Assembly (NCBI GenBank): GCA_029262295.1
Contig: JAJCZR010000004.1
Location: 14,313-78,312 of the forward strand
DNA: 64,000 nucleotides
DNA from: Deltaproteobacteria bacterium
Lineage (GTDB): Bacteria; Desulfobacterota_D; UBA1144; Nemesobacterales; Nemesobacteraceae
Direction of reading: 5' to 3'
Shown here: positions 6,714-40,541 of the stretch, in pieces
How positions within the stretch are numbered: the stretch's first letter is position 1
Layout: each line of letters opens with the position of its first letter
The notes under the pieces: generated by a model
Databases searched by the model: none
Told to the model about the DNA's origin: nothing
The model's input: the letters and a program-made list of their open reading frames with translations, nothing else
Program-made: the position numbers and the translations under genes

Positions 6714-6752
6714 AATTCAAGATACAGGATGCAGGATAGTCCAATACTAATT

Positions 6753-6790: not shown

Positions 6791-6917
6791 TAAAAGATTT
6801 TTTAACAACATCATTATAACTTTTTATACATTTACTCTCACTACTTATTTAGGAGAAAAAAAAATTAATTTCACCTTATCAAATAACTGCACCTAATAAT
6901 CATTATCAACTTCTTTT

Positions 6918-6953
6918 CATCATCCTGGATACCGCATCAAGTGCGGTATGACA
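6918..6953 (+). repeat. TGTCAT-hairpin repeat family, copy 1
   Basis: CATCATCCTGGATACCGCAtcaagTGCGGTATGACA. Perfect 8-bp stem ATACCGCA/TGCGGTAT. Confidence 0.6.
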
Positions 6954-7015
6954 GAATATTCTTTTATTATTCTTTAAAACCAACATCTAAGTTCTAACAT
7001 CTAACACCTATAATA

Positions 7016-11715: not shown

Positions 11716-11780
11716 TGTTTTTTGGCTTAATTATATTGAATCTAATTGAAGGAATTAATTCTATACAAAAAACGACCAAC

Positions 11781-13040
11781 ATGAAAGTAAAATCGATAAG
11801 AGGTTTCAGGGATATACTGCCGGAAGAGATAAAAAGGTGGCACTTTATTGAAGAAAAGTGCCGAAAAATCTTTGAAAAATATGGTTTTAGCGAGATCAGA
11901 ATACCCATATTGGAGCAAACAGACATTTATACAAGCGGCCTTGGCGACACATCTGATATTGTGTCAAAAGAGATGTACACTTTCGAAGACCGAGATGGGA
12001 CATCCATAACTCTCAGACCTGAAGGCACAGCCGGAGTGGTAAGGTCATTTATTGAAAACTCCATGGGCAAAAAATCCCCAGTTAATAAGCTTTATTATTC
12101 CGGGATGATGTTTCGCCATGAGCGTCCACAAAAAGGACGTTACAGAGGATTTAACCAAATGGGAGCTGAGTGCTTCGGCTCTGAAAGTGCGTACTGTGAT
12201 GCCGATATTATCTCTATGCTCTGGAGTATATTTTCTGAACTTGAGCTTAATAATCATGTAAAACTCGAAATTAACTCAATTGGTACAAGCGAAGACAGGG
12301 CTAAATTCAGAGAGGAGCTGGTTAATTATTTTGAACCACAAAAAGATAACCTTTGTGATGACTGTAAGAGAAAACTTGATACCAATCCATTAAGAATTCT
12401 TGACTGCAAGGTCGAAACTTGTTTAACAACTATCGGTAAAGCTCCGTCAATACTTGATTTTTTATCAATTGATAGCAAAAATCACTTTGAAAAAATCAAG
12501 TTTTTATTAGAAAAGATTGATATACCTTTTACTGTGAATCCAAAGATTGTGCGTGGCCTTGACTACTATACAGACACCGTTTTTGAACTGACAACTGACA
12601 AGCTTGGATCTCAAAATGCAGTGGGTGCAGGTGGAAGATACGATGTGTTGGTTAAACAACTTGGTGGGCCTGATACTCCGGCAGTGGGTTTTGCCATCGG
12701 ACTTGAAAGATTAATTCTTTTACATGAACAGGTTTTTCCTGAAGAATACAGACAAAATGTGGATATTTATGTCGCCTCCCTCGGAGAAAAAGCCCTTAAC
12801 GAAGGAATTTATATTTCAAACATTTTAAGGAAACAAGGCCTCAATGTTGAGTATGGATTTGATAAAAAGAGCTTTAAAAGCCAGCTTAAAAGGGCAAATA
12901 AGATAAATGCCAAATATACTATTATTATTGGTGAAGATGAACTTGACAGAAATGTATTTAAGCTAAGGAATATGAAGCTCAGTGAAGAGAAAGAGTATTC
13001 ACTTGATGAGATTGAGAATTTTATAAATCTTATAAGCTAA
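11781..13040 (+). CDS. hisS: histidine--tRNA ligase
   Basis: Class II aaRS motifs (MYTFEDRDG..LRPEGTAG; FRHERPQKGRYR). ATG at 11781 (MKVKSIRGFRDILP) matches the HisRS N-terminus. The ORF-track start at 11667 is a GTG overlapping the divergent GT gene and was not used. Confidence 0.9.
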   Translation: MKVKSIRGFRDILPEEIKRWHFIEEKCRKIFEKYGFSEIRIPILEQTDIYTSGLGDTSDIVSKEMYTFEDRDGTSITLRPEGTAGVVRSFIENSMGKKSPVNKLYYSGMMFRHERPQKGRYRGFNQMGAECFGSESAYCDADIISMLWSIFSELELNNHVKLEINSIGTSEDRAKFREELVNYFEPQKDNLCDDCKRKLDTNPLRILDCKVETCLTTIGKAPSILDFLSIDSKNHFEKIKFLLEKIDIPFTVNPKIVRGLDYYTDTVFELTTDKLGSQNAVGAGGRYDVLVKQLGGPDTPAVGFAIGLERLILLHEQVFPEEYRQNVDIYVASLGEKALNEGIYISNILRKQGLNVEYGFDKKSFKSQLKRANKINAKYTIIIGEDELDRNVFKLRNMKLSEEKEYSLDEIENFINLIS

Positions 13041-14440: not shown

Positions 14441-14514
14441 ATGAAAACGCTCAACAATAAGTATTGTTTTTACTAGCTACTAACCACTAGCCCCTAACTA
14501 CTAAAATCCAACCC
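14441..14514 (+). repeat. G-depleted CTAA-rich tract immediately 3' of the giant TPR gene
   Basis: tactagctactaaccactagcccctaactactaaaatccaacccctaatcc. Same composition as the tracts at 6961-7012 and 26571-26720. Confidence 0.4.
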
Positions 14515-17500
14515 CTAATCCACATTATTCTGAAGATAAACGATATTCTCTTCAATCATATTATAGATATCGGGAAACTGGTTTTGGCTAAATACTTTTT
14601 GAGCTTCCCTGTAAGACTTAATTGAGTTTGAGTAGTTTTGTTTTTTATCCTCACTTTCAGCAAGAGTTGAGTATGCACCTGCAAGATTATTCCTCGTAGT
14701 GGCATACTGTATTGGAAACTTCTCAAAGCTGTAAACAATCAATGCAGATTCGTAAGAGGAGATTGCATTTTTACAATTATTACTTTTAGACTCAACCTCG
14801 CTTAATGTCCTGTAAGCAACACCAAGATTATTTTGAGTGGCAGCAAACTGAATTGGCATATTTTCAATAGTCCTTACTTTCAGAGCACGTTTATAGCTTG
14901 ATATGGCTTTTTTACAGTTATCAATTTTGTTTTCTTCTTCAGCAAGGGTCCTGTAGGCAGTGCCAAGATTGTTCTGGGTATTACTGTATTGAATAGGAAA
15001 ATCCTTGAGCGAGTAAGCCTTAAGCGACTTCTCATAGAAACTTATAGCTTTAGTTGAGTTCACAGCTTTATTGTTAACCTCTGCAAGGTTTCTGTGTACA
15101 ATACCAAGATTATTATTAGCGGCAGCAAACTCCATAGGATTGTCATTAATATCATATACTTTCAGCACTTTAGAATACGAATCGATTGCCTTTTCACAGT
15201 TTTCTACTTTGTCTTCAAGATCAGACAATGCACTGTAAATTGACCCTATGTTGTTATATATGCTTGCATAAACAAAAGGTGTTTTGCTAAAACTATAATA
15301 TTCAAGCGCACTTTCATAGGCTTTTATTCCCTTCTTGCAAAACTCGGGATCATTATTTGTCTCAATTAGCTTTAAGTAATTATTTCCAAGATTTCTGTTA
15401 ATAAGACCATAATCGTTGGTATTATCATCAATAGAAAAGTAGTTAAGTGAATCTTCATAACAGACAACTGATTTCTCAAGATAGCCGCTGTCATTATTTC
15501 TCTCGCCATAAGTACCGTATGCAATTCCAAGATATTTATTTACTAATGCATATTCACCTGGGGACTTTTCCTTATCAAAACTTTCCAAAGCATGCTCGTA
15601 GGATTTAATTGAGTTCATAAATGCTTTATTATCAAACTCTATTTCAGAGATAACTCCATAAGCAATTCCAAGGTTCATATTAATTATTGCATAATCCTGG
15701 GGATTACTTTGTTTTGTAATGATTTTAAGGGCTTTATCATAAAAAGGGATGGAATCTTTATAGTACTTGAGTTGCCCTTCCCTTTCTGCAAGTGAAGTAT
15801 TTACAATCCCAATATTTTTATTTATTGCAGCATGATCTTCGGGAAAATCTTTTGAATTAAAATAGTTAAGTGCATTCTCTGCAATTGTTAACATATTTTT
15901 ATATTCCCTTAAATCAATTTCTCTTACATTTTCAGGATAAATTCCAATAAGATCCCGGCTTATTTCAGCATAAAAAGAAGGTTGTTCTTTTTCATCAATT
16001 TCATTAATTGCGTTTTTATAATTTTTAATAGCTTCAGAGTAACCTAAAAGATTGACACCATTTTCTGCATCTGCCACATAAGACTCAGAAAGTTTTCTGG
16101 ATACTTCTATAAATTCCGAAGGAGAATCTTTTTTATTTATATTTTCAAGCCTGGCTTTATACTCCTTAGTCATTGAGGGAGCTTTTTGCTCATCTTCACT
16201 TGCAACTACTTCGGGGGCTTCCTGTTCGGGGGCAAACTCTTCTTTTTGTTCTTCTTCTACTTTTGCTTCCAGGCTTTCTTCAGTTATTTCATCTTCACTA
16301 AGTGTATTATCAGCTAAAATCTCAGATGGTTCCCCTTCAATTTGTCTATCTTCACTCATTTTTAATGAAGAACTTTCTTCTATCATTTCATCAACAAGTT
16401 CAAGCACATCATCACTCTCAGAATCTTCTTTTGCTTCCAGTAGTTCAGAAGGGTTAGTGCTGTGAGTTGCAGCCTCTACTTCAATTTCTTTTTCCTCATC
16501 AACTTTTTCTTCCTCAGCAGATGCCAGTAAAACTTCTGTTTCAACTGGTTCTTCATCTACAGGCTCAACCGTATCAAAAGAAGCAAGTATTTCTTTTACT
16601 TCATCAATTTTCGGTTTGATTTCAGTAATCTTCTCACCGTTTTTTTCATTTTCATAAAAATCCATTGCACTATTATATAAGGCTAGTGCATAGTCGAGCT
16701 TTACCCTTTCCTCATTAATTGCAAAAAGGCTATGGTTAATAAAAGCAAAATTGAGGTTTATTTCAGCCGTATCCTCTTTAGTACCAAGTTTTTCAACTGA
16801 TTGTAAGACTTCATTCAATATTTTTTCAGCACTATAAATATCTTCTGCATTACTATCCGAATCGTAAAGTTCGACAAGGCTAAAACCTTTTAATTTTTGA
16901 AGCTGAAAATTTCTTTCTGGATAATCTTGCTCCGGATATTTTGCGAGAAGGACATCAACTGTAGATATCTTTTCCCTTACATTCTCTTTTGACTTTAAGA
17001 ATTCAAAATTAAGATTAAATATTTCATTCATTCTTTCATTTATATGAGAATAAATAGATGAATTTTCTTTCTCAGTGAAATAACTTTCGGCAATTCTATA
17101 GTGATTCTCACTATCAATTAATAAGGATTCGTCTTTTTTATCTTCAAATAAACTAAAACATATGTCTGCAAGATTAAGATTGATTTCAAAATACTTCTCT
17201 TGTGATTTTTCTTCACTGAAACCCTGCAAAACTTCTTTATATTTTTCAATTGCAAGAGTGAGTTCACCATTTTCTCTATATGATTTAGCCTCAAGTAAAC
17301 CAGCTTCATCTATAATTTCTTTTACTTCACTTAACCTTGGATCAGCAGCATCAATATTTGAATTATTTACAAATTTGTCAAAATATTCAAGGGCTTTCGA
17401 AGCATATTCAGTGTTATCTGATTCTACCGAAATTCGGTTATAAAGCCGTGCAATAAAGTATTGTAACTCTCCTGCATTTTTTGGATCTTCATTTTCAGCA

Positions 17501-20500
17501 AAACCCGCACTTTGTTTTAATGAAGACATAAACTCATCAAAATCATTTTTATCAAGAGCTTCAGTTGGTTCATCCAAATAACTTTTAGCAAGAATAAGAT
17601 TGTATTTTGCAATCTCACCACTATTCCCAGCATTTGAAGCTATTTCTTTAAGCTTGGTTATATAACCTTCTCTTTCTTTAAAACTAAAGGGGCCGTTTTC
17701 AAGAAGTGATTCATAGATAGATTTTATATTTAGTTCAGCATTCTCAAACTGAGTAGGAGAATCTTCTTTTTTATAAACAAGTAAAGATGCATTTGAATAA
17801 TTAATAGTATTATCTGCATCAGCCTTGTTTGCTGATTCCTGAAATTTTTCTTTGAAATGGTTTGCGAGTTTAAGATTTATCTCAGCATATTTCGCAGGTT
17901 CTTTCTCAAGTGTAAAATGTGTTAGTAAGTCAATATATTTATCTTCAGAAAGCTTTCCGCTCTTGGTAAAATCTGCTTCTGCACTTTCATGCATTAGCCT
18001 TGCTATTTTATCATTTACTTCATTTAAAAGCTTCTGATCACCTGATGGGATATAACTTAGTGAATTTTTGTAAAACTCGAGTGCTTTGCCAGGTTTTGAG
18101 TTATCGTTATTTATTGAGTAAAGCTTTTCAAAAAGCTCACCGAGCTTGATTGCCACATCTGCTTTTTTCTCATTTTCACTGATGCTGCTGAAAGAAATAC
18201 GATAACATTCAACAGCTTTTGTATACGTATCGTAGTCATTATTAGCATCAGCGAGTGTTGAAAAAAGCCCCGCATTTTTTAATTTTTGTTCATAAAACAA
18301 TTGATCTCTTTTCTCTTCATCTATGAGTTGGGTTGCTTTTTCATAAAAGAAAAGTGCAGTTTCAAGTTCCTCTTTGTTTTCATAAATATTTCCATAAAGA
18401 CGATAATTATCGAACAATTTAGAGCTAATAACTGCAACTTCTTCATCCTCTTTGTTGAACATGTAGAGTTCCCTTGCTTTTTCATAATGCTCAATAGCAT
18501 CTGACAGGGGTTCCTTTTCTTCTGACAACCCATATATTTCATTACTTATATTTCCCATCATAGTCTGGATTGCAGCGAGCTCAGTGAAATCATTTACCTC
18601 GTCAAGATAACTCATATAATTTTTAAAATTGATTATTGAAGTTTTATAAAGATCAATATCATTTTTCGTTTCACCAAGGGAAAAATAAGTCTTCGCAATA
18701 TCTTTATAAGCAGAAGGAAGTGCTTCGTATCTTTCATTTTCTTTATAAAGGGAAATAAGGCTGCCTAGATACTCAACTTTCTTTTCATTATCATAATGTC
18801 CATCTTCCTCAACTAACTTTTCATAAACTTTCTCAAGATAAGAGTTGATATCACCCACTTCATCAGAAGAGCTAGAATCGCTATTTAAAAAGATATTCTT
18901 TGCTTCATTAAAACAGGTAATAGAATTATGCAAATCTTCTATTTGGTTCTCAGAATCACTGTTTTCGAAATAGCAGCGGCCCATTAGTTTTTGGATAGAA
19001 GCATATTTATCAGGATAATTTTCAGCATCATAATATTGAAGGCTTTGCTGAGATAACAAGATTGCCTGTTTTGAATTACCACTATTAAATTCATTCTCAC
19101 TATTAATAAACAAAAGCCCCGCTTTTTCTGCACTATAATCTTTGGCTTCATCTAAAAGATTATTATCGTTGCAAAAATGTATTAAATCATCAACAGTTGA
19201 TATTGAATTATTGAGGTAATTAGTGTCTGCTTCATTTTCGAACAGGAGCTTTGAGCTTTGGTAAATATTTTTTTGTATTGAAAAATATTTGTCTGAAAAA
19301 TTTTCTTTACTAAAGTATTCCAAAGACATGCAATAATTCTCAATAGACCTTGTTAGACTATCTTTGTTATATTCTTTTTGGGCTAGTTTTTGGTATGAAT
19401 CCCCAAGGGTAATAAAAGAAGTAGCTGAATACTCTGTGTTTGGTTCTGAATCTATAAAATCAATATCTTTTTCAATAAGATCAATCACTTTACCAAAATC
19501 TTCATTTTCATAAAAACTATCAACAAGCGTTTGCTTATTAGCAAGATAGATCTTAGAAATATCACTATACTGCTGCGATCCTGATTCAATAGAATTAAGC
19601 GCTTGTTTAAAATAATGATTGGAATCAAAAAGCTTTGATTCTTCACCAGTTATTGAATAAAGTGTTGCATAAGTTTCAGCAATATCACTATTAAGAGCTA
19701 CATATCTATTTTGATCTTTTTCCTTATTAAAAAAGCTTAAACCCTCTTCGATTTTGGATATTTTATTATTAAGCAGGTCAGCATCTTTCGAGGTTACTCC
19801 CAGTTTTCCATCAATATCAGCACTGGATAAAAGGGTGCTATAATATTTTTCAGGCTCACCTTGCCTATCAATTGATTTAAGTGCATTTTTAAAAGCAGTG
19901 TTAGCTTTGTTTAAAAATTCGTTATTTTCATTTACTTCATAGGATTTAAGGTAAAGTTCCCCAAGATTAATCTCGATACCTGAGGTATTCATTCCCGTAT
20001 CTTTAGACTCGAATATACCTAGAAGTTTATTGTAATATTCAACACCATCCTGAGTATTATCAAAACTCTTATTTTCTGCCAACAATAGCTCATGTGCAGC
20101 TTTAAGTTTGCTCCTTATCTCACTATTCTCATTAGGATAATCTTTTTCGTTAAAAAACCCTGAAATGTTTTCATAATTTTCAATTGAGTCAAACATTAAG
20201 CCCAAATCATTTTTAGTGCTACCCAACTCAAACTTGGCTGTGGCTAATTGAAGATTTATATGGGCATTTTTATTTGGAAACTCTTCACTATCAAAAATAT
20301 TAAGTGAACTTTCTAAATGAGCTGCCGACTTATTTAAATGGTTGTCATCTTTTTCTTGCTGATAAAGAGATAAGCTCATAGAACCAATCTCATAATCAAC
20401 AACACCATTTTCATAAATATGTTTTTCACCTTTAAACCCAAGCTGACTTTCCTCTAAACAAGAAAGGCATTCCTTGTATGGTACCATTTCATTGTTTATC

Positions 20501-23500
20501 AATGCATTTTCTTTATTGAGCATTGCAATATGATAATTTGTTGCTGCGTATATGAGGGGATAATTTTCAAGGTTAAATTCATCGAGTGATTCCTTATAAG
20601 TATTTATAAGGTTTTCATAAGACTCAGGTGTATTTACCTTATTATGGAAAAGCCTGTAGGCATTGGCAAGATTGATACTTGCCCTTTGTCTTACCACCTC
20701 CCCCACCTGTCCAGTATCATCCTGCGACATCTGGGCAACTGACCTCAAAATATCAATTGCCTTTTCACACTCGTCATTTTCTGCTGAGCAAGTCGAGTTA
20801 TAGATATGGGCAACACCGAGGTTGTTTTTAAGTGCTGATTCAAGATAATCAGTCCCAAAGCTGTTTAGAATTTCCTTTGAAGATTCAATATCCACGATCG
20901 CAGCATTAATATAAGAATCTTTTTCCCTGTGTGAGAAAAGAAACAGATTACAGCATGCACTATTATTTTTTATTGCAGCATAAACGCCTGGATTCCTTTC
21001 GGAATTTATTTCCTTCAAGGATAGTTCAAAATTATCAAATATAGTGGATATATCTTCATTTGAATGTGAACCATCAAATTCCGACAAAAAAAGCTTGGCA
21101 TTTGAATAGTTGTTTCTACAAATAGATAGTTCAGTGTTAGCGCCAATACTTTCAAAATATTCAATTGCACTTGAATAATCAGTGAGCGCCGGATCTAGTA
21201 AACCTTTATCATTATTGATCTCATAAAGCGTACATTTGGAATTAGAAAGATTGTTTTTTACAGTTAATAGTAGCTCAAGGTTATCTTCAGGTATCAACTC
21301 AATCGATTCATTAAAAATTTCAGACGCTTTGCTTAGATTTGCCTCAGCCTCCATAACCTCAGATAACACGCAGTAACTTGCACCAAGGTTGTTTAATACA
21401 AGGGCATGATCGATTTCATGTGACTGTGATTCAATATAGTCTGCTGAACTACTTAGTTGCCTTACAGACTCAAGGGCATTTTCTTTTTTATTTTCAATAA
21501 ATGCGAGTTTTCTATGTAAATTACCGAGATTGTTGGATATTTTTGCATATTGTATTGGATAAACATCAGATTTAAAATATCTTGAAGCATTTTTATATGC
21601 CTCAATAGCCTTATAGATATTGCTAACATTAAGACCATCTTTAAGGTCATTTGAAAACAGGCCTCCAAGTTCAATTTGAATAAGGCTGTATTCTTCAGGA
21701 AAAAACTCATGTTTAAAATAGCCCAGTGATTCAAGATTTGCTCTTATTGAAGATTGAAGCACTTCTGGATCTTTTTCATAGACATAAAGCTCTTTATAAG
21801 ATCTTGCTATTTTTCTCATGATAAAGCCATATTTACTTGGGTTACTTTCTCCCTCGAAGACTCTTTTAGATTCTTCAAATGAAGAAATGGCTTTCTTTAT
21901 CAAATCAGGGCTTCCATCAAAAAAGGCTACATCAAGATAGGAATCACCAAGGTTATTCTGGATCATTGCATAGTTGTCTGGATACTCATCAAAGGAGTAA
22001 ACCTTTAGCGATTCATTAAACGAGTTAATGGCATTTTCAAGATAGGTTTTGTTATCTGTTTCCTCTGCAAGAGAAGTGTATGCAACCCCGATATTATTTT
22101 GTGTCATTGCATAATCAATTGGGGATCTTTCATAAGTTATAAATTCTGAAGAAACTTTATAACACTCAATTGCCTTATTGCAGTTCGCTTCCTTGTTTTC
22201 AAACTCAGAGAGGGCACTATAGGCATTTCCAAGATTATTTACCGTGGAGTAATATGTTTCAGGAAAATCATCTTTATTGTATATCTCAAGGGCCTGTGTA
22301 TATGAATCAATTGCTTTTGTGCAATAATCGCTTTCAAACTCAAGCTGCGAGAGCATCTCGAAAGTGGCCCCTGCATTTCTTTTAATTTCAGCAAAATCCT
22401 CAGGTTTATGATCACTACTAAAAAACTGCAAACTTTGTTCGTATGAATCTATAGCCCTATGGCAACTTTCAACATTTCTTTCAAATTCACCTTCAAGCCT
22501 GTAAGAAGTGCCAAGGTTTCTGTTTAATGTTCCATAATATTCAGGCTGTTCTTTGGGGTCAACAAGTCTGAGTGCATCTTCATAACATTTAATCGCTTCT
22601 TTTATTCTATCTTTATGTTCATCCTCATGAGAAATTTTTAGATGAGAGTCGCCCATCTTTGTTTTAATATCAAGATACTGCTCAGTTTGCGTATCGCTAT
22701 CAATAAAATTAAGTGCTTCTTCAAGGTGTTCAGTTGCTTTTATACAGTTTTCAATTTTGTCTTCAGATTTTGATAATAGAAGATAAGCCTCACTCAGCCC
22801 TAAAAGGGCCTCAGGATATCTTTCATCATCTTTTTTATCCTCAAGCATTAAAATAACCCTTTCGTAACTTTCTACTGAGGATTTAATTATTGTATTATCT
22901 TCACTAATATCACCAGCTTTTCCCAAAGCATGGGAAAGTTTAGTCTCAATATCCAAATCATCGTATTCTATCGCAACTTCTTCAAAAGAAGCCTTTGAAG
23001 CCGAAAAGCTTTCAATTGCTTTATTGTAGATATCAAGTTCTGCGCTCTCTTTAGCTTTATTCAGATAAGAAATTCCAAGATTATAGTTGATATTTGCATT
23101 TTTGATTAGGCTTTCTTTATTGGCCGGAAGTGAAATTATCTCTTCAAAAAGTCCTATCGCTTTTTGATTTTCACCAAGCTTAATACATGAAACTGCAAGG
23201 TTGTTTTTAATATCCAGGATTAATGCCGACTCGTCCTCAGAGGAGAGAAGTTCTAAAGCTTTGATATAAAAGAAGCTTGCCTTTGTAGCAAGCGAGTTAT
23301 CTTTGTCATCTGAGAGCAAACATGCATCTGCAAGATTCTTTAAATTTTCAATACTAACTTCAATATCGCTATCAGCATTAACAATATTTTCTGTAAAGGT
23401 TTTTAAAACTTCACTAAACCGGGCCTTGTCATTTTCATCTGCATCACAAATTCTTTTGGTCAAAATTGAAATGGCAAGATAATTAATATTTAAAAGAAGG

Positions 23501-24228
23501 GCTTTATTTTCATCATCAAGATTTGAGTATTCAGCACTTGCTGCTTCAAAATCTTTTATACTCAGATTTTCATGATCTTCAGCTTTATTTAGAAACTCAG
23601 AAATTGCACTTGATTCTGATAATGATTTTATTTCGTTTCGTATTTGCTCAAGCAGTTTATTATCCAGGGAGTTGTTTTTAATTCCTGAATTTACAAGCTC
23701 AATAAACTGCTCTTTACTTTCCTCAAAATTGGAAAAATCAAGTTCTACAAGATTAAGGTTGTTATCAAGAAAATTTTCTGAAATGGATTTAATATTAGAG
23801 AAAAAAGCTTCATCATCTTTTATAAAATCTGCTTCATGCCCCGAGAGTGTTTCAGAAAGGTTAGTCAGTTTTTCAAAAAAAGCTTTGTTAGAGGAGCTTA
23901 GTAAAGCAATTGATGGAGTATTTGATTTTTGTAGTTGGCCATAAACAAGCACTGTCTTTGGGCTAAAACCATCCAGGATAAAAATATTAAGTGCCGAGCT
24001 TTTATTTATTTTAGAAATGTTATCAATATCTACATCTTTTTCGTTGATTGTATTTATTCTTATGGATTTTGAACTGAGATATGACTTAACCTTATTAATA
24101 GCTTCAGGGCTATTTAAAGTATTAAAAACAGAAGGATAGATAAGGTTACAGGGGACCGGTGTACCAAGAAATAAACTTGTTGATTGAGATTTTGTGAGAT
24201 CAATTTTATAAATTCTGTTTTTAGACAT
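14515..24228 (-). CDS. giant TPR-repeat protein (3237 aa) with an internal acidic low-complexity linker
   Basis: Single uninterrupted ORF. A TPR-like motif of 40-42 aa (..NNLGxAY..L.....KAI..Y..AL..Y....P..YA.) recurs along the length. An E/D-rich segment lies roughly at DNA 16080-16560. The C-terminal ~500 aa form a near-consensus TPR array, visible at DNA level as ~126-nt periodicity in 14515-15900. Confidence 0.85.
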   Translation of the reverse strand: MSKNRIYKIDLTKSQSTSLFLGTPVPCNLIYPSVFNTLNSPEAINKVKSYLSSKSIRINTINEKDVDIDNISKINKSSALNIFILDGFSPKTVLVYGQLQKSNTPSIALLSSSNKAFFEKLTNLSETLSGHEADFIKDDEAFFSNIKSISENFLDNNLNLVELDFSNFEESKEQFIELVNSGIKNNSLDNKLLEQIRNEIKSLSESSAISEFLNKAEDHENLSIKDFEAASAEYSNLDDENKALLLNINYLAISILTKRICDADENDKARFSEVLKTFTENIVNADSDIEVSIENLKNLADACLLSDDKDNSLATKASFFYIKALELLSSEDESALILDIKNNLAVSCIKLGENQKAIGLFEEIISLPANKESLIKNANINYNLGISYLNKAKESAELDIYNKAIESFSASKASFEEVAIEYDDLDIETKLSHALGKAGDISEDNTIIKSSVESYERVILMLEDKKDDERYPEALLGLSEAYLLLSKSEDKIENCIKATEHLEEALNFIDSDTQTEQYLDIKTKMGDSHLKISHEDEHKDRIKEAIKCYEDALRLVDPKEQPEYYGTLNRNLGTSYRLEGEFERNVESCHRAIDSYEQSLQFFSSDHKPEDFAEIKRNAGATFEMLSQLEFESDYCTKAIDSYTQALEIYNKDDFPETYYSTVNNLGNAYSALSEFENKEANCNKAIECYKVSSEFITYERSPIDYAMTQNNIGVAYTSLAEETDNKTYLENAINSFNESLKVYSFDEYPDNYAMIQNNLGDSYLDVAFFDGSPDLIKKAISSFEESKRVFEGESNPSKYGFIMRKIARSYKELYVYEKDPEVLQSSIRANLESLGYFKHEFFPEEYSLIQIELGGLFSNDLKDGLNVSNIYKAIEAYKNASRYFKSDVYPIQYAKISNNLGNLHRKLAFIENKKENALESVRQLSSSADYIESQSHEIDHALVLNNLGASYCVLSEVMEAEANLSKASEIFNESIELIPEDNLELLLTVKNNLSNSKCTLYEINNDKGLLDPALTDYSSAIEYFESIGANTELSICRNNYSNAKLFLSEFDGSHSNEDISTIFDNFELSLKEINSERNPGVYAAIKNNSACCNLFLFSHREKDSYINAAIVDIESSKEILNSFGTDYLESALKNNLGVAHIYNSTCSAENDECEKAIDILRSVAQMSQDDTGQVGEVVRQRASINLANAYRLFHNKVNTPESYENLINTYKESLDEFNLENYPLIYAATNYHIAMLNKENALINNEMVPYKECLSCLEESQLGFKGEKHIYENGVVDYEIGSMSLSLYQQEKDDNHLNKSAAHLESSLNIFDSEEFPNKNAHINLQLATAKFELGSTKNDLGLMFDSIENYENISGFFNEKDYPNENSEIRSKLKAAHELLLAENKSFDNTQDGVEYYNKLLGIFESKDTGMNTSGIEINLGELYLKSYEVNENNEFLNKANTAFKNALKSIDRQGEPEKYYSTLLSSADIDGKLGVTSKDADLLNNKISKIEEGLSFFNKEKDQNRYVALNSDIAETYATLYSITGEESKLFDSNHYFKQALNSIESGSQQYSDISKIYLANKQTLVDSFYENEDFGKVIDLIEKDIDFIDSEPNTEYSATSFITLGDSYQKLAQKEYNKDSLTRSIENYCMSLEYFSKENFSDKYFSIQKNIYQSSKLLFENEADTNYLNNSISTVDDLIHFCNDNNLLDEAKDYSAEKAGLLFINSENEFNSGNSKQAILLSQQSLQYYDAENYPDKYASIQKLMGRCYFENSDSENQIEDLHNSITCFNEAKNIFLNSDSSSSDEVGDINSYLEKVYEKLVEEDGHYDNEKKVEYLGSLISLYKENERYEALPSAYKDIAKTYFSLGETKNDIDLYKTSIINFKNYMSYLDEVNDFTELAAIQTMMGNISNEIYGLSEEKEPLSDAIEHYEKARELYMFNKEDEEVAVISSKLFDNYRLYGNIYENKEELETALFFYEKATQLIDEEKRDQLFYEQKLKNAGLFSTLADANNDYDTYTKAVECYRISFSSISENEKKADVAIKLGELFEKLYSINNDNSKPGKALEFYKNSLSYIPSGDQKLLNEVNDKIARLMHESAEADFTKSGKLSEDKYIDLLTHFTLEKEPAKYAEINLKLANHFKEKFQESANKADADNTINYSNASLLVYKKEDSPTQFENAELNIKSIYESLLENGPFSFKEREGYITKLKEIASNAGNSGEIAKYNLILAKSYLDEPTEALDKNDFDEFMSSLKQSAGFAENEDPKNAGELQYFIARLYNRISVESDNTEYASKALEYFDKFVNNSNIDAADPRLSEVKEIIDEAGLLEAKSYRENGELTLAIEKYKEVLQGFSEEKSQEKYFEINLNLADICFSLFEDKKDESLLIDSENHYRIAESYFTEKENSSIYSHINERMNEIFNLNFEFLKSKENVREKISTVDVLLAKYPEQDYPERNFQLQKLKGFSLVELYDSDSNAEDIYSAEKILNEVLQSVEKLGTKEDTAEINLNFAFINHSLFAINEERVKLDYALALYNSAMDFYENEKNGEKITEIKPKIDEVKEILASFDTVEPVDEEPVETEVLLASAEEEKVDEEKEIEVEAATHSTNPSELLEAKEDSESDDVLELVDEMIEESSSLKMSEDRQIEGEPSEILADNTLSEDEITEESLEAKVEEEQKEEFAPEQEAPEVVASEDEQKAPSMTKEYKARLENINKKDSPSEFIEVSRKLSESYVADAENGVNLLGYSEAIKNYKNAINEIDEKEQPSFYAEISRDLIGIYPENVREIDLREYKNMLTIAENALNYFNSKDFPEDHAAINKNIGIVNTSLAEREGQLKYYKDSIPFYDKALKIITKQSNPQDYAIINMNLGIAYGVISEIEFDNKAFMNSIKSYEHALESFDKEKSPGEYALVNKYLGIAYGTYGERNNDSGYLEKSVVCYEDSLNYFSIDDNTNDYGLINRNLGNNYLKLIETNNDPEFCKKGIKAYESALEYYSFSKTPFVYASIYNNIGSIYSALSDLEDKVENCEKAIDSYSKVLKVYDINDNPMEFAAANNNLGIVHRNLAEVNNKAVNSTKAISFYEKSLKAYSLKDFPIQYSNTQNNLGTAYRTLAEEENKIDNCKKAISSYKRALKVRTIENMPIQFAATQNNLGVAYRTLSEVESKSNNCKNAISSYESALIVYSFEKFPIQYATTRNNLAGAYSTLAESEDKKQNYSNSIKSYREAQKVFSQNQFPDIYNMIEENIVYLQNNVD

Positions 24229-24553
24229 CTTAATTCCCCAAAATCACTTTAGCAAAAAAACCTTTTAATTTCAAACTGTTAGAATCGAAATTTAAAGCCA
24301 TTGCTTAATTTTAAATCAACAATTGATCTTTGAAAAAATGGGTTGACCTTGCAGGGATTAAGATGATTAATCAGAACTAATGATGATTTATAAAAAGTTC
24401 TTAAAATAACCTTTCTCCTTTAAAGGTGGTTCAGCAGCCATATTAAAATCCAACTTAGGCCTGACACTTTGCGCCCTATTCTTTCAAATAGTTTGCCTTT
24501 ATCTATTAAAGGTAAACTTTATGCAACAAATCAATTATATAGCATTTTAAAAA

Positions 24554-26307: not shown

Positions 26308-26444
26308 TAAAAATTTTATATACGTTTTATATGTCATCTCAAACTAGATTTAGCATCCAGGATTTTCACCAGGATTATAAATACATCTCAGGCTTCACCA
26401 GATTGCTGCAATACTATTATTCAACTGATAGTTTTTCTTTACTT

Positions 26445-26480
26445 CTATTCTGGATACCGGATCGGGGTCCGGTATGACAA
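26445..26480 (+). repeat. TGTCAT-hairpin repeat family, copy 2
   Basis: ctattCTGGATACCGGAtcggggTCCGGTATGACAa. Same flanks as copies at 6918 and 40494; stem carries compensatory changes (GGA/TCC where copy 1 has GCA/TGC). Confidence 0.6.
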
Positions 26481-26500
26481 TGTGGTATCTTTCGTTTAAT

Positions 26501-26548
26501 CCCCCTCACCCTAACCCTCTCCCACGGAGTGGAGAGGGGATATTGAGG
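26501..26548 (+). repeat. nested hairpin CCTCA..CCCTCTCC-loop-GGAGAGGG..TGAGG (module d)
   Basis: Perfect 8-9 bp inner stem. A related copy in opposite orientation lies at 6753-6790. Confidence 0.5.
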
Positions 26549-26570
26549 TGCATCCTGCATCATGCATCCC

Positions 26571-26720
26571 TTATTTTCCCTGACACCTAATCCCTAAAAC
26601 CTAACACCTATCTTTTCCTAACCACTACCTACTATCCACTAATACCTAAAACCTAACACCTGCATCATGTATCCTGCATCTTGCCTTTTACTAACACCTA
26701 AAACCTAATCCAGTTATATT
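26571..26720 (+). repeat. G-depleted CTAA/CCTAA-rich tract bounded by ATCCTGCATC-type motifs
   Basis: About 150 nt with almost no G on the + strand. cctaaaacctaacacct occurs three times. catcctgcatcatgcatcc lies at 26549-26570 and ctgcatcatgtatcctgcatc at 26660-26690. Confidence 0.5.
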
Positions 26721-26729
26721 AAACATCTA

Positions 26730-28639: not shown

Positions 28640-29692
28640 ATGTCCACATCTCTAATAATCGGAATAGCAATAGTTCAAATTTCACTTGTTTTGTTTGTAG
28701 TGCTTACTGCAGTTGCATATCTCACTTTTGCAGAAAGGCGTATTAGTGCCTTTATACAGGACCGTTATGGCCCAAATAGAGTTGGCCCATTTGGTTTACT
28801 CCAACCCCTGGCAGACGGGATAAAGTTTATTTTCAAAGAAGATATTATTCCAAACAAGGCTAATAAAGCCATGTATATATTAGCCCCTGCTTTTGCTCTT
28901 GTTACGGCTTTGTCTGCTCTCGCAGTTGTACCGATTGGAAGAGGATTTAATACAGATCTATTTGGACTCTTAAATGAATCAATTTTCATAAAACTTCAGA
29001 TAGCTGATCTAAATATCGGAATTTTATACATAATGGCTATAAGTTCTCTTAGCGTTTACGGAATAGTATTGGGAGGATGGTCATCCAACAGCAAATACTC
29101 ACTTCTCGGAGGACTCCGTGGAGCTGCTCAAATGATAAGCTATGAACTATCGCTGGGGCTTTCACTCATTGGAGTAATAGCTATTACCGGTTCATTAAGA
29201 CTTGGTGACATTATTGAGGCCCAGGAAAGAGTTTGGTTTATGATACCTTCTTTCATTGGGTTTGTTGTATTTGTAATATCCTCATTTGCTGAAACAAACA
29301 GGCTTCCTTTTGACACTCCTGAGGCCGAACCAGAAATTGTTGCAGGTTATCACACTGAATATAGCAGTATGAAATTTGCAATGTTTTTCATGGCAGAATA
29401 CACTCACATGATACTGGCATCATGCTTGATAACCAGCTTGTTTTTGGGTGGGTGGTATCCACTACCGATTGGTGGATGGTTTGGAATTGATATAGATACT
29501 CATTGGTACTTACCACCAATGGTGTTTATCAGTAAAGTTGTATTTCTACTCTTTTTCTTCATATGGGTAAGATGGACTTTACCAAGATTCAGGTTTGATC
29601 AGGTTATGCACCTTGGCTGGAAAAAACTTTTTCCGCTTGCTATACTCAACATACTGGTTGTAAGTGTTTTAATAATTCTTGGTATTGTTTAA
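28640..29692 (+). CDS. nuoH: NADH-quinone oxidoreductase subunit H
   Basis: 350 aa with NuoH/ND1 signatures (LLQPLADGIKF, GWSSNSKYSLLGGLRGAAQMISYE, ETNRLPFD). Starts 2 nt after the nuoG-like gene. Confidence 0.9.
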   Translation: MSTSLIIGIAIVQISLVLFVVLTAVAYLTFAERRISAFIQDRYGPNRVGPFGLLQPLADGIKFIFKEDIIPNKANKAMYILAPAFALVTALSALAVVPIGRGFNTDLFGLLNESIFIKLQIADLNIGILYIMAISSLSVYGIVLGGWSSNSKYSLLGGLRGAAQMISYELSLGLSLIGVIAITGSLRLGDIIEAQERVWFMIPSFIGFVVFVISSFAETNRLPFDTPEAEPEIVAGYHTEYSSMKFAMFFMAEYTHMILASCLITSLFLGGWYPLPIGGWFGIDIDTHWYLPPMVFISKVVFLLFFFIWVRWTLPRFRFDQVMHLGWKKLFPLAILNILVVSVLIILGIV

Positions 29693-29699
29693 AAACATT

Positions 29700-29950
29700 T
29701 GTCATTCCAAACTTGATTTGGAATCCAGGTTTTAGAGAAGTTTTTCAAGCAAATATCTCCACTAACTATTTTTATTCCAAAATGGGTCAATCTCCAAATT
29801 TCTTTTCCAAGTTTTAAAAGCTTTTCTAAATAAATTATCAGCAATCTTTATGAGTAAATTATCATTTTTTACTCTCCATAATATAAATACAGGGGTGTTT
29901 CTTTTACTTTATTCCGTAATTCTGGATTCCAAATCAAGTTTGGAATGACA
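29700..29950. mobile_element. MITE-like element: two perfect 29-bp inverted copies of a hairpin repeat flanking ~190 bp of AT-rich DNA
   Basis: Left TGTCATTCCAAACTTGATTTGGAATCCAG at 29700-29728 is the exact reverse complement of 29922-29950. Each arm is itself a hairpin (ATTCCAAA/TTTGGAAT) with the same TGTCAT...CTyGA...ATCCAGG architecture as the dispersed repeat family. Starts 8 bp after the nuoH stop. Confidence 0.45.
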
Positions 29951-35741: not shown

Positions 35742-36758
35742 TCAGGAAACTAATTTTTTTCTTCTGATCCCAAAAAATAAAACCGTTATAAGTGGGACTA
35801 TTAAAACCAGAATATTTGCAAATGCAGACCCGCTGTTAACATTCCCATTGACTAATGAACATCCGCCACCATCATCATCGTCGGCATCTACAACTGCTTC
35901 ACCATTATTATTATCAAACAGTGTAACATTAATTAGGTCAACAGGATTATCTGAATTACCTGATACTCCTGGTCCAAAACTGCCACTAACTTTTGAATTT
36001 GCAACCACACCTGATGAACTACCATCAAATGAAATCCCTATTCCAGGATTCGGAATAAAGTCATCAGATGGAAAATCACCAGTTGCAGGATTAAGCCTGT
36101 AACCAGTAGCAGTTATGTGACTATCTTTTATCGATACAACTGCATTATCCGATACTAGAATTCCAAAATTAATATTATTTTCTATACGGGAATTTGAGAT
36201 AGTAACATGCGAAGCATTACGTATATCAATCCCATTTGTCCAGTTTCTAGTAACTATATTCTTTATTATTACCCTTCTGTTTGCAGGTGCATCCACAATT
36301 ATTCCAGGGGCTCCCTGCCGGGCACCACTTCCTGCATCTCCCTGAAGCACTGCATCAATATTTGCAGTTACTCCCGGTGCTGCTTCCAATACTACATTTC
36401 CTGCTAGTGTAACAACTTCAGGAAAAGTACCAGAAGTCACTATAGTAATTCGTCCATTGTTATTAACCCCGAGCCCGCTATTTGCTCCATTTATTGTGCC
36501 AAAAACTCTATCACCGTCATTATCTTCATCATCACCAATAATAGAATCACCATCATAATCACCACAAGTTCCAATTGCCTGCGCAGAGTTTGAACCTGTA
36601 GGTGGTACGTTGCAATTGCCTTCAACCAATACTGGATGATTCGCAAACGCATCAGTCACATTGACCAGAACAATTCCAGTAAATAAAGCCAGTCCGATCA
36701 AAAAGAATAGCGTTGAATTTAAAAATTTTATTTTAGGAACTGTTTTAATGTTTTTCAT
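35742..36758 (-). CDS. secreted right-handed beta-helix (pectate-lyase/NosD-like) protein with MYXO-CTERM-like C-terminal sorting tail
   Basis: Signal peptide with cleavage ...AFA|NHPV. A Gly/Asn/Ile-rich repeat core (NNGRITIVTSGTF...NIVTRNWTNGIDIRN...) indicates a parallel beta-helix. C-terminus DDDDGGGCSLVNG...ILVLIVPLITVLFFGIRRKKLVS is a GC motif, TM helix and basic tail. Confidence 0.7.
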   Translation of the reverse strand: MKNIKTVPKIKFLNSTLFFLIGLALFTGIVLVNVTDAFANHPVLVEGNCNVPPTGSNSAQAIGTCGDYDGDSIIGDDEDNDGDRVFGTINGANSGLGVNNNGRITIVTSGTFPEVVTLAGNVVLEAAPGVTANIDAVLQGDAGSGARQGAPGIIVDAPANRRVIIKNIVTRNWTNGIDIRNASHVTISNSRIENNINFGILVSDNAVVSIKDSHITATGYRLNPATGDFPSDDFIPNPGIGISFDGSSSGVVANSKVSGSFGPGVSGNSDNPVDLINVTLFDNNNGEAVVDADDDDGGGCSLVNGNVNSGSAFANILVLIVPLITVLFFGIRRKKLVS

Positions 36759-36811: not shown

Positions 36812-37663
36812 TCAGAATGAGTCGATATCACCATCAGAATTTGGGTTATTATCAAAAAGTATAAGTGAACGTGTTAAAACAGAACCACTACCTTCGTTTG
36901 AAATACCAGTTGCAAAACTTCCTGTAATAGCAGTATTTACAACAGCCCCTGTGGAACTGTCTTCAAAAGAGATACCAATACCAGGATCTGGCGTGAAGTC
37001 ATCAGATGGAAAATCACCTGTGCCGGGATTTAATCTGTAACCAGTGGCAGTAACATGACTATCTTTTATTGTTACTACTGCACTGTCTGATACCAAGATT
37101 CCATAATTAATATTATTTTCTACACTGCAACCTGAAATTGTTACATGTGAGTCTCCACGCACATCAATTCCATTAGTCCAGTTTCTTGTAACTATATTTT
37201 TGATTGTTACCCTTCTGTTTTCAGGTGCATCCACAATTATTCCGGGGGCTCCCTGCCTGGCACCGCTTCCATCATCACCCTGCAGCACAGCATCTATACT
37301 TGCTGAAACCCCAGGTGCAGCTTCTAAAACCACATTGCCTGCAAGTGTTACAACTTCAGGAAAAGTGCCGGAAGTAACAATAGTTATACGACCATTGTTG
37401 TTAACACCATCCGAGCTGTTAGCTCCGTTGATTGTGCCGAAGACCCTGTCGCCATCTGTATCTTCAGCAGTACCGATAACTCCATCGCCGTCGTAGTCAC
37501 CGCAAGTGCCGGCTACCGGTGCAGAGTCTGAACCAGCAGGTGGTACATTACAGTTACCTTCAACCAATACTGGGTGATTGGCAAATGCATTGGAACTCCA
37601 GGATATTGCAAAAAACATTGCTACTATAAAAGCTGCAAATTTAATTTTTTTAAAAATGTGCAT
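36812..37663 (-). CDS. secreted right-handed beta-helix protein, tandem paralog (~85% identical core) lacking the C-terminal sorting tail
   Basis: Same AFA|NHPVLVEGNCNVPP N-terminus and beta-helix core as 35742..36758. Ends ...DNNPNSDGDIDSF with no TM or basic tail. Confidence 0.7.
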   Translation of the reverse strand: MHIFKKIKFAAFIVAMFFAISWSSNAFANHPVLVEGNCNVPPAGSDSAPVAGTCGDYDGDGVIGTAEDTDGDRVFGTINGANSSDGVNNNGRITIVTSGTFPEVVTLAGNVVLEAAPGVSASIDAVLQGDDGSGARQGAPGIIVDAPENRRVTIKNIVTRNWTNGIDVRGDSHVTISGCSVENNINYGILVSDSAVVTIKDSHVTATGYRLNPGTGDFPSDDFTPDPGIGISFEDSSTGAVVNTAITGSFATGISNEGSGSVLTRSLILFDNNPNSDGDIDSF

Positions 37664-40493: not shown

Positions 40494-40530
40494 CATCATC
40501 CTGGATGCCGCATCGAGTGCGGCATGACAA
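40494..40530 (+). repeat. TGTCAT-hairpin repeat family, copy 3
   Basis: CATCATCCTGGATGCCGCAtcgagTGCGGCATGACAA. Stem ATGCCGCA/TGCGGCAT differs from copy 1 by a compensated pair (A-T to G-C). Confidence 0.6.
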
Positions 40531-40541
40531 TAAATGTATTA

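Follow-up and report, generated by a model that had tools for sequence, protein, structure and literature searches.

Neither the 422-nt spacer between the MFS gene and tatA nor the spacer between the efflux adaptor and pump genes is likely to be one four-part element; each is probably an accumulation of small repeats from three independent classes, all of them already described. Both lie in the window, the whole stretch of 64,000 nucleotides of DNA that was analysed, and the MFS-tatA spacer holds REP hairpins, a BoxC element, and 7-base tandem repeats. An earlier note on this DNA had divided these sequences into four modules, a through d, placed in both spacers; the modules are indeed present there, far above chance, and in the orientations that it gave. 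Its comparison with bacterial interspersed mosaic elements was also apt: the spacers mix REP hairpins with other short repeats, as do the BIMEs of E. coli and the NIMEs of Neisseria. The suggestion that this BIME-like system is 'lineage-specific' is wrong, as no module is restricted to this lineage: module a falls in the published CGTC/TGTC REP superfamily (~20 phyla here), module d is the BoxC/TMECO motif that E. coli also carries, and metagenomes commonly contain (ATCYTGY)n arrays like those of module b. Each module adds new members to a known repeat family, the whole forming a mosaic of the BIME/NIME type, and the MFS-tatA island is genuine but of an ordinary kind.

Chance, or the local base composition of AT-rich intergenic DNA, is scarcely credible as the reason why the modules recur. 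The module a motif, CTGGAT-N6-TCNAG-N6-ATGACA, has five matches in the window versus 0 expected (100 shuffles), and a sixth copy with a longer loop is found at 26450-26479. For module d, CCCTCAC..AA..CTCTCCCA has two copies, at 26503-26524 (plus strand) and 6766-6787 (minus strand), versus 0 expected; for module b, ATCCTGCATC has three matches, at 26552, 26671, and 6728 (the last on the minus strand), versus 0.08 expected; and for module c, CTAACACCT has four (7001, 26601, 26653, and 26691) versus 0.33 expected. Each module exceeds all shuffles, modules a and d match families that are kept across phyla, the stems of module a covary, and TRF finds a true 7-nt periodicity. For modules a, b, and d the explanation by chance or composition is already refuted. 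Module c is of low complexity, having only 6 G in the 159 nt from 26571 to 26729 (versus a window mean of 24.4 +/- 6 per 150 nt), and the earlier note had allowed that it might simply reflect composition bias; it is instead the product of heptamer arrays and not just of background, although one other 150-nt stretch of the window is equally G-poor.

The REP hairpins

The CGTC superfamily of REPs is defined by a CGTC tag (or its TGTC/CCTC variants), an 8-9-bp stem, a 4-5-nt loop, and a CCA-like tail, and it takes in the dRS3 of Neisseria and the RPE-4 and RPE-6 of Rickettsia (Di Nocera, De Gregorio & Rocco 2013, BMC Genomics 14:522). Judged by its sequence, module a is a TGTC-tagged REP of this superfamily. 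The TGTC tag and the CCAG tail are present in 6/6 window copies, and the loop is CTNGA in 5/6 (CCCCGA in the copy at 26450). The first stem pairs are A-T and T-A, with AT...AT invariant in 55/55 distinct copies. The six window copies, all of them intergenic, occupy four sites as two tag-outward (HH) dimers and two singles:

6925-6953, minus strand: single REP, TGTCAT ACCGCA CTTGA TGCGGT ATCCAG on the transcribed strand; the adaptor gene stop lies 63 nt before it
26332-26360, plus strand: REP, left half of an HH heterodimer, TGTCAT CTCAAA CTAGA TTTAGC ATCCAG, with a degenerate stem; the MFS stop lies 25 nt before it
26450-26479, minus strand: REP (module a), right half of the HH dimer, TGTCAT ACCGGA CCCCGA TCCGGT ATCCAG on the minus strand; the dimer spacer is 89 nt
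29700-29950, no single strand: HH homodimer of REPs, its two 29-nt arms forming a perfect inverted repeat with 193 nt between them; the nuoH stop lies 8 nt before the first arm
40501-40529, minus strand: single REP in sense orientation, 13 nt past the gyrB stop codon

Read as CTGGAT...ATGACA, the motif is on the plus strand at 6925-6953, 26450-26479, 29922-29950, and 40501-40529, and on the minus strand at 26332-26360 and 29700-29728. (Of these, the earlier note recorded the copies at 26450 and 6925 but neither the inverted partner at 26332 nor the loci at 29.7-29.95 kb and 40.5 kb.)

The REP hairpins look constrained, and alignment of the copies has shown compensatory change keeping the stems paired: 96.4% of cells are paired, 83 cells have double changes, 0/500 shuffles match this, and 6/8 stem pairs covary. 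All four free pairs are complementary in 123/133 scan matches, which carry 35 different stems. The tag and tail can decay while the stem stays paired by compensatory substitution. Within the window, the stem at 26332 is weakened, with 4/6 variable positions paired, and the REP at 26450-26479 appears as a hairpin in the RNA fold of the island. In the related species L258, the ortholog of the gyrB REP has undergone a compensatory stem change (GCCGCA/TGCGGC to GCCACA/TGTGGC).

REPs sit preferentially just past stop codons, tag first on the mRNA strand, with 53 in sense and 23 in antisense orientation after stop codons (this statistic uses crude ORF calling, and 56/178 copies fell within open frames in GC-rich loci). 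Among dimers in the scanned loci HH predominates (59 HH, 12 TT, and 7 HT), and motif matches span ~20 phylum-level groups, including Patescibacteria. A dedicated (RAYT-type) transposase flanked by REPs was not found among 120 REP-bearing loci; all-against-all BLAST of the ORFs in these loci gave no recurrent neighbour, and no protein family was present in more than 5/120. The superfamily as a whole is not known to have a transposase of its own. REPs were not called as intrinsic terminators, and no T-run directly adjoins the hairpin.

The BoxC element and the heptamer arrays

BoxC/PIT/TMECO (Bergler 1992; Hoyne 2000; Holder et al. 2015, NAR 43:10126) has two direct C-blocks and one inverted G-block, which, by analogy with the elements studied, can form a very stable hairpin or a putative intrastrand triplex in single-stranded DNA. 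Triplex formation and polymerase arrest in TMECO have been studied by CD/NMR spectroscopy or primer extension (Holder 2015, NAR 43:10126), and the literature ties the motif to local genomic instability. By its sequence, module d is this motif. Its two copies and the arrays that make up modules b and c are as follows:

6721-6737, minus strand: module b array, ATCCTGC ATCCTGT ATC; the RND pump start codon lies 8 nt downstream
6753-6787, minus strand: AT-shifted BoxC-like element (module d), CCCTCAC TTTAATT CTCTCCC ATCAA GGGAGAG
6961-7012, plus strand: module c array, (AACATCT)x4, by TRF and local alignment to the MFS-tatA island
14472-14514, plus strand: further G-poor array (ACTAACC), module c-like, in the spacer after the giant ORF, by TRF and composition
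26503-26540, plus strand: BoxC/PIT/TMECO type-A motif (module d), CCCTCACCC-TAA-CCCTCTCCC-ACGGAGT loop-GGAGAGGGG, by the shared 21-mer, BLAST, and alignment
26549-26570, plus strand: first module b array, (TGCATCC)x3, abutting BoxC, by TRF and alignment
26577-26661, plus strand: G-poor module c arrays (ACCTAAA / CTAAAAC) with a 52-nt internal duplication, by TRF, repeat family, and composition
26660-26684, plus strand: second module b array, GCATCAT GTATCCT GCATCTT
26688-26729, plus strand: last CTAACACCT unit and tatA leader, the one stretch of the island that is conserved in L122, a related species

The hairpin cores of module d lie at 26517-26536 and 6755-6773. The three 9-nt G/C blocks that define BoxC (CCCTCTCCC, GGGAGAGGG, and GGGTGAGGG, with a first loop of 3-5 nt and TTA or CCG as the second) are found in type-A form at 26503-26540, though the first loop is longer; the copy at 6753-6787 matches the three blocks only partly. 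An exact 21-mer, CCCTCACCCTAACCCTCTCCC, is common to module d and E. coli TMECO type A (TMECO no. 2). When module d was used for blastn, matches were found in 5409/5426 E. coli genomes at 80-95% identity over no more than 45 nt; the E. coli BoxC matches occupy a median of 17 places per genome, and none is annotated. (One E. coli example is the nrdA-nrdB spacer.) Module d could also be aligned with copies from E. coli, Thermodesulfovibrionales, Nitrospirae, Proteobacteria, and Patescibacteria. BoxC is enriched ~3-fold near REPs, an enrichment that is confounded because both are intergenic. The AT-shifted element is weakly terminator-like at 6753-6775, and is the only such element.

Module b is a 7-nt tandem repeat of TGCATCC, and TRF places period-7 arrays at 6982-7010, 14479-14504, 26549-26569, 26585-26610, and 26639-26661. 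Seven is also the commonest TRF period in REP-bearing loci, and (ATCYTGY)n arrays are widespread in metagenomes. The sole AACTGAC run, at 12586-12601, appears within a coding ORF (11667-13040). Rfam, at gathering and E<=10 thresholds, has no family for any module; its sole match in the window is a c-di-GMP-I riboswitch, which lies outside the modules. Telomere-like CCCTAAA, parS, and dif sites were considered, and none was supported.

Another reading gives the arrays and hairpins a cis-regulatory function at the RNA or DNA level, either as an unstructured, G-poor 5' leader recruiting S1, Csp, or CsrA-type proteins or as an array of sites bound by a nucleoid or partition protein. Leader recruitment to start codons that lack a Shine-Dalgarno sequence has been proposed for the TAACTGA repeats of Beggiatoaceae, where heptamer repeats lie just before start codons and ribosome binding sites are rare (MacGregor 2015, PMC4679880). 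In the window, a b array lies 8 nt before the pump start, c and b arrays lie 20-70 nt before the tatA start, and neither start has a Shine-Dalgarno sequence; the last c unit and the leader are conserved in L122, and the array-free relative L254 has GAGGA before its tatA start. However, ~60% of the starts in the window also have no obvious Shine-Dalgarno sequence, so the pump and tatA genes are not special in this respect. In addition, the transcriptional orientation of module c is opposite at the two loci, orthologous sites have other arrays or none, and (ATCYTGY)n arrays in metagenome contigs show no clear bias in orientation or position relative to genes (again with crude ORF calls). None of the four spacers that bear REPs contains a match to the IHF consensus WATCAANNNNTTR. 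The RNA fold of the whole island is no better than that of shuffles (z = -0.67), so that a structured leader RNA was rejected; Rfam offers no match for the island either. A cis-regulatory role is unlikely. The binding sites for a nucleoid or partition protein that the earlier note had proposed found no support, and a conserved binding array is argued against because the island is absent from close relatives.

Order of the modules, related species, and a possible history

The d+b pair is collinear over ~75 nt at both loci, with a local score of 34 versus a shuffle maximum of 27, and the c-c match between the two loci extends over 29 nt (p about 0.005). Once d+b is removed in silico, a+c is also collinear. 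Within this genome d+b and a+c thus recur as collinear blocks, but a general a-b-c-d grammar does not exist: of 145 module b matches in metagenome contigs, none lies within 400 nt of this REP and virtually none has BoxC on its upstream side. Purely independent accumulation would predict less order than the repeated adjacency of d to b and of a to c in this genome shows.

Such order could be explained if the island were a composite non-autonomous mobile element, or a set of MITE-like units ([REP + c-array] and [BoxC + b-array]) copied as blocks with a genome-specific grammar. The collinear blocks could be read as an a-c unit into which d+b had been inserted, perfect 29-nt terminal inverted repeats bound the pair at 29700-29950, and the elements are absent from orthologous sites in relatives. 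Nevertheless, this explanation is rather doubtful. The blocks occur at two loci only, sequence conservation around the six window REPs ends ~31-33 nt out, the families occur independently in other genomes, and different heptamers lie beside the orthologous REP in relatives. REP dimers were rejected as MITEs: no target-site duplication is visible at either dimer, no direct repeat flanks the inverted repeats at 29700-29950, and the interiors are unique in the data searched. The 193-nt spacer of that pair contains no ORF; a gene within it was rejected, since stop codons break the translation, and Pfam gives no match for a 51-aa ORF that takes in part of the spacer and overlaps the first REP arm.

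Comparison with related species bears on when the repeats arrived. The MFS-tatA spacer of 422 nt corresponds to 180 nt in L122, 47 nt in L254, and 52 nt in L257. Because the relatives have 47-52-nt or 180-nt spacers there, the island is a recent expansion and not a conserved unit. The variable flanks typical of BoxC are likewise seen here, as evidence that is only qualitative because it comes from a single locus. REP, BoxC, and heptamer arrays are all absent from 22 kb each of L254 and L257, and homology to L122 at the tatA side begins, by BLAST, at window position 26691. These filled and empty sites show the elements as gained in this lineage after the split from relatives with a ~50-nt spacer. 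After gyrB, ~90 nt bearing the REP are likewise absent from L254. In favour of constraint, the nuoH stop codon and the first REP beyond it are 41/41 identical in L122, a species 82% identical overall, and past the adaptor gene, L127 and L129 have a REP at the same place and in the same orientation, of a different subtype and with other heptamers beside it.

If the spacers are a pile-up of independent repeat classes, as preferred here, they may have filled in the following way. REPs would spread through a trans-acting activity, and, by analogy with E. coli, inserted copies would be retained for the effect of their transcribed hairpin on the 3' end of the upstream mRNA: the hairpin might protect against exonucleases, cause partial termination, or stall ribosomes if it lies within ~15 nt of the stop, as has been reported for E. 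coli REPs. Structure-prone BoxC and REP DNA could stall replication and promote slippage, by which adjacent heptamer arrays and local duplications would be made and resized, so that the spacer would grow and come to vary between relatives. The d+b and a+c pairs were apparently copied within this genome as composite blocks of ~75-100 nt. Against BoxC-driven slippage as the source of the heptamers, arrays elsewhere usually lie away from BoxC and from this REP. A bolder proposal, and a very unlikely one, is that REP, BoxC, and heptamer arrays are all products or substrates of one very widespread trans-acting activity, possibly carried by phages or vectors, which seeds repeats after stop codons from E. 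coli to Patescibacteria and has here copied composite blocks (BoxC + ATCCTGC; REP + CTAACAY). If true, the filled and empty sites among close relatives would be a natural system for finding that activity.

In annotation, the spacers are best labelled with the three repeat types, REP (CGTC class), BoxC/TMECO, and heptamer, and not as a new system. The repeats also account for the breaks at these points in short-read assemblies of this lineage. Both the CGTC-class REP and BoxC reach far past the taxa of their first description, the BoxC 21-mer being identical in E. coli and a 35%-GC Thermodesulfobacteriota-like MAG. Species within one genus-level group have gained, lost, and swapped these elements, and the filled and empty orthologous sites are material suited to asking how transposase-less CGTC REPs and BoxC spread.

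Comparison with known repeat systems

The window REPs are CGTC-2-like. They share with the published CGTC REPs (Di Nocera 2013) an unpaired (C/T)GTC tag, an 8-bp stem that starts with A-T/T-A, a 5-nt loop, and a CCA tail, as well as an intergenic position near gene 3' ends, a predominance of HH dimers, the occurrence of both homo- and heterodimers, and no associated transposase. They differ in their host, an uncultured Thermodesulfobacteriota-like bacterium of low GC content (35%), in their AT-richer stems, and in their dimer spacers of 89 and 193 nt, whereas 9-50 nt is typical of the scanned loci. The host lineage was placed by GyrB homologs, with 88% identity to a Thermodesulfobacteriota MAG, and on this ground a Nitrospirota origin was dropped. 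The 2013 survey covered five phyla, as opposed to the ~20 phylum-level groups found here.

With BoxC/PIT/TMECO, module d shares the three blocks, TTA (type A) as the second loop, the exact 21-mer, a strictly intergenic location, and a spacer that varies between relatives. In contrast, the first loop here is 7-8 nt rather than 3-5 nt, the G-block is shifted by one base, and AT substitutions mark the outer block and spacer of the second copy (6753-6787). The 64 kb contain only two copies, and in this genome each is followed by an (ATCCTGC)n array.

The heptamer arrays recall the cyanobacterial STRR heptanucleotide repeats, which Mazel reportedly described in 1990. They also recall the TAACTGA repeats of Beggiatoaceae, Cyanobacteria, and Bacteroidetes (MacGregor 2015, PMC4679880). 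As in those systems, they are intergenic period-7 arrays of 3-4 units that vary between relatives and often precede starts without a Shine-Dalgarno sequence. They occur in another host phylum, however, and the units are TGCATCC, CCTAAMA (ACCTAAA/CTAAAAC), AACATCT, and ACTAACC; none of the window arrays found by TRF has an STRR1-3 or TAACTGA unit (CCCCAGT, TTGGTCA, CAACAGT, or TAACTGA).

Inverted REP-type hairpins interleaved with other short repeat families are a property that the window spacers have in common with both E. coli BIMEs and Neisseria NIMEs. E. coli BIMEs are built from GTAG-tagged Y and Z REPs of alternating orientation with defined linkers and bind IHF, gyrase, and Pol I; here the REPs are TGTC-tagged, the linkers are unique sequence, BoxC, or heptamers, and the IHF consensus is missing, so the BIME definition in the strict E. 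coli sense does not apply. In Neisseria NIMEs, dRS3 bounds RS units of 50-150 bp that form arrays, whereas the clusters here are small, with BoxC and heptamers as the intervening pieces; the two REP-bounded units, of 89 and 193 nt, enclose sequences that are unique and not repeated. The NIMEs nonetheless use dRS3, itself a member of the CGTC superfamily.

A REP hairpin in intergenic spacers

Reading of the sequence confirms that modules a to d occur as the earlier note described them, both in the MFS-tatA spacer (near 26308-26729) and in the spacer between the efflux adaptor and RND pump genes (6714-7015). The module a pattern, CTGGAT-N6-TCNAG-N6-ATGACA, has five matches in the 64-kb window and none expected (100 shuffles), a count that argues against the rival explanation that the recurrence of the modules is chance. 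A relaxed scan finds another copy, at 26450-26479, with a loop that is one base longer. The module a copies described earlier are real; an inverted partner at 26332 and two other loci had been overlooked.

Repeat features in the window (module a copies from pattern scans; HH, REP dimer with tags outward)
6753-6787, second copy of module d, an AT-shifted version of BoxC
6925-6953, module a
14472-14514, additional G-poor heptamer array
26332-26360, module a; HH heterodimer with the copy at 26450, 89-nt spacer
26450-26479, module a
29700-29728, module a; HH homodimer with the copy at 29922, 193-nt spacer, perfect 29-nt arms
29922-29950, module a
40501-40529, module a

All six copies are intergenic, and conservation around them stops about 31-33 nt out. 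Module a has an unpaired TGTC tag, an 8-bp stem starting A-T, T-A, a 5-nt CTNGA loop and a CCAG tail; judged by its sequence, this anatomy is the one by which Di Nocera (2013) defined the CGTC superfamily of REPs. Within this superfamily HH dimers predominate, no dedicated transposase is known, and one member, dRS3 of Neisseria, is found in mosaic intergenic clusters (Di Nocera 2013). The dimers in our scanned loci comprise 59 HH, 12 TT and 7 HT orientations, with spacers of mostly 9-50 nt.

When one genome per species was scanned, the module a pattern, which fixes only two stem pairs, matched no fewer than 120 loci, from an extraordinarily wide range of taxa. Among the matches listed are Alpha-, Beta-, Gamma- and 'Delta'-proteobacteria, Campylobacterota, Nitrospirota, Thermodesulfovibrionia, Planctomycetota, Chloroflexota, Patescibacteria/Saccharibacteria, Ignavibacteria, Elusimicrobia, Armatimonadota and Verrucomicrobiota. 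One Methanosarcinales MAG contributes a perfect CGTC-class copy (contig L028, 366-394), which could be a mis-binning or a true archaeal copy. An Azospirillaceae MAG carries nine alternating REPs arrayed at a 124-nt period (L061, 2519-3043), an array that resembles a NIME-type cluster. The four free stem pairs are all complementary in 123 of the 133 scan matches, which include 35 different stems. Across 55 distinct REP sequences, 96.4% of stem cells are paired, changes on both sides occur at 6 of the 8 stem pairs (83 such cells), and no shuffle or slid register comes near this level of pairing. A structural constraint on the predicted REP stems is demonstrated by such comparisons.

REPs are placed with a bias toward 3' ends and the sense orientation. 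In the window, the REP nearest each upstream stop codon presents TGTC first on the mRNA strand, at 8, 13, 25 or 63 nt from the stop; in the scanned loci, of the REPs lying no more than 150 nt from a stop, 53 are in sense and 23 in antisense orientation, by ORF calls that are crude. No intrinsic terminator is called at the REPs, which have no adjoining T-run. By analogy with E. coli REPs, the transcribed hairpin would act on the 3' end of the upstream mRNA, and ribosomes may stall at REPs lying about 15 nt or less past the stop; the E. coli work behind this analogy is reportedly that of Newbury in 1987 and Liang in 2015. Translation of 29689-29728 (-), through a REP, yields the peptide WIPNQVWND. 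Similar REP-derived strings often turn up in 'hypothetical protein' entries that are spurious, and annotation therefore calls for caution.

BoxC and the heptamer arrays

Module d (CCCTCAC..AA..CTCTCCCA with an inverted GGGAGAG arm) occurs exactly twice in the window, with zero expected. An exact 21-mer, CCCTCACCCTAACCCTCTCCC, which takes in the type-A 'TTA' second loop, is common to window 26503-26523 and the reverse complement of E. coli TMECO no. 2, CCCTCTCCCTTGAGGGAGAGGGTTAGGGTGAGGGT (Holder et al. 2015). BLAST of 26496-26550 gives matches of 80-95% identity in 5409 of 5426 complete E. coli genomes, at a median of 17 places each; one match sits in the nrdA-nrdB gap, and no annotated feature lies beneath the five matches listed. 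An alignment (A4) places the window BoxC in register with copies from E. coli, Nitrospirae, and Thermodesulfovibrionales, proteobacterial and Patescibacteria MAGs. By motif and alignment, module d is assigned to BoxC/PIT/TMECO. This motif, earlier named BoxC and PIT, is known in >260 genomes; its E. coli copies are without exception intergenic, and its loci are unusually rearranged among close strains (Holder et al. 2015). Predicted viral contigs of IMG/VR contain the BoxC 21-mer at at least 120 loci and the REP pattern at 21.

Tandem Repeats Finder (TRF) resolves modules b and c into tandem arrays of period 7, with units TGCATCC, ACCTAAA/CTAAAAC and AACATCT. Against expectations of 0.08 and 0.33, ATCCTGCATC is present three times in the window and CTAACACCT four times, each restricted to the two spacers, and 26571-26729 has only 6 G in 159 nt. 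Period 7 is the most frequent TRF period among the 120 REP-bearing loci listed. A metagenome scan with ATCCTGCATCNTGNATC (at least 120 loci, 145 matches listed) found clear (ATCYTGY)n arrays in at least 63 of the 145, often as inverted pairs, which around a short spacer could form long hairpins. These and related arrays are common in environmental contigs (L133-L252; examples are L219 ~700-760, L228 ~800-900 and L103 900-1000), and several heptamer families can lie side by side on a single metagenome contig. Among the matches listed, no TGTCAT..ATCCAG REP lies within 400 nt of an (ATCYTGY)n array and essentially no BoxC lies upstream of one; the four-module grammar is therefore not general.

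Intergenic heptamer repeats are known in cyanobacteria (STRR). In Beggiatoaceae, Cyanobacteria and Bacteroidetes, heptamer repeats lie directly upstream of starts without ribosome binding sites (MacGregor 2015), a setting relevant to the rival reading of the island as a translational leader or protein-binding array. The window units differ in sequence from both sets and so are not members of those families, and an obvious Shine-Dalgarno is found at only ~40% of window starts. The tatA and RND pump starts (26700-26729 and 6714-6740) have no Shine-Dalgarno and are preceded by heptamer-derived sequence; in L254, a relative's contig without arrays, GAGGA lies ahead of the tatA start (18645-18691).

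Within this genome, BoxC followed 1-14 nt on by (ATCCTGC)n is collinear over ~75 nt at both loci, with a local score of 34 vs a shuffle maximum of 27. When the d+b block is removed in silico, REP, linker and (CTAACAY)n align across the two loci, and the match between their c modules is 29 nt (p ~0.005). These two loci are suggestive of composite blocks seemingly copied within the genome. Their collinearity also speaks for a less likely rival reading, in which the MFS-tatA island is a composite mobile element. No recurrent protein family was found beside the REPs, the maximum being 5 of 120 scanned loci.

Filled and empty sites in relatives

The closest named GyrB homolog, from a Thermodesulfobacteriota MAG, is 88% identical; on relatives' contigs L258, L254 and L257 identity to the window GyrB is 95%, 86% and 81%. 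The MFS-tatA spacer is 422 nt in the window, 180 nt in L122 (82% nucleotide identity across tatA-nuoH), 47 nt in L254 and 52 nt in L257. Of the island, L122 retains only the last ~39 nt (CTAACACCTA...CAGTTATA) ahead of the tatA start. In L254 and L257, REPs, BoxC and heptamer arrays are all absent throughout the 22 kb of each, so repeat load is sharply different among close relatives, and L254 lacks the whole ~90-nt post-gyrB block. Such comparison shows that the elements were gained relative to sister species.

At occupied sites, the nuoH stop codon and first REP are identical in L122 (41/41), with neighbouring coding sequence that differs. The post-gyrB REP has an ortholog in L258 (6480-6560, aligned with window 40495-40541) in which GCCGCA/TGCGGC has become GCCACA/TGTGGC, a compensatory pair (G-C to A-T), while the tag has decayed from TGTC to TGTA and the tail from CCAG to ACAG; this suggests that stem and tag/tail are under different constraints. 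The post-adaptor REP of L127 and L129 has the same place and orientation and another subtype, TGTCAT TCCCGA atgtttgta TCGGGA ATCTG; between adaptor stop and REP, L129 has module-b-like heptamers where the window has module c. The short-read contigs of all these relatives terminate in or just past REPs (among L121-L132, from Logan, one stops 28 nt inside the post-nuoH REP), indicating that REPs fragment assemblies.

The distance from gyrB to the MFS-tatA-nuoG-nuoH block is 0.1-3 kb in L254/L257 vs ~11 kb in the window. A 3237-aa ORF (14515-24228, -), kept in relatives, has 141-nt (47-codon) internal periodicity in its DNA, and a c-di-GMP-I riboswitch (24422-24507, -; 64.7 bits) lies ~200 nt upstream. 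A 300-nt direct repeat (35961-36260 and 36899-37198, 75% identity) lies within adjacent ORFs 35742-36758 and 36812-37663, which are probably tandem paralogues.

Origin of the mosaic and known systems

The evidence best supports the view that repeats of three known classes have piled up in permissive spacers, recently and specifically in this lineage. Motif comparison shows the family assignments of the modules: each adds a new member to a family already described. The secondary structures of BoxC and REP would favour replication slippage, which may give rise to the heptamer arrays as well as the 52-nt duplication (D12) and alter their size; TMECO loci are reported to be unstable, in keeping with this proposal. 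Three points are notable: how widely the CGTC REP and BoxC are distributed among taxa, the clear filled and empty orthologous sites, and the REP ortholog with its compensatory change. They are incremental and alone do not open the question of element spread. The likeness to BIMEs suggested in the earlier note stands as a resemblance: the island falls outside the BIME definition, and as a mosaic it is similar to BIME/NIME clusters.
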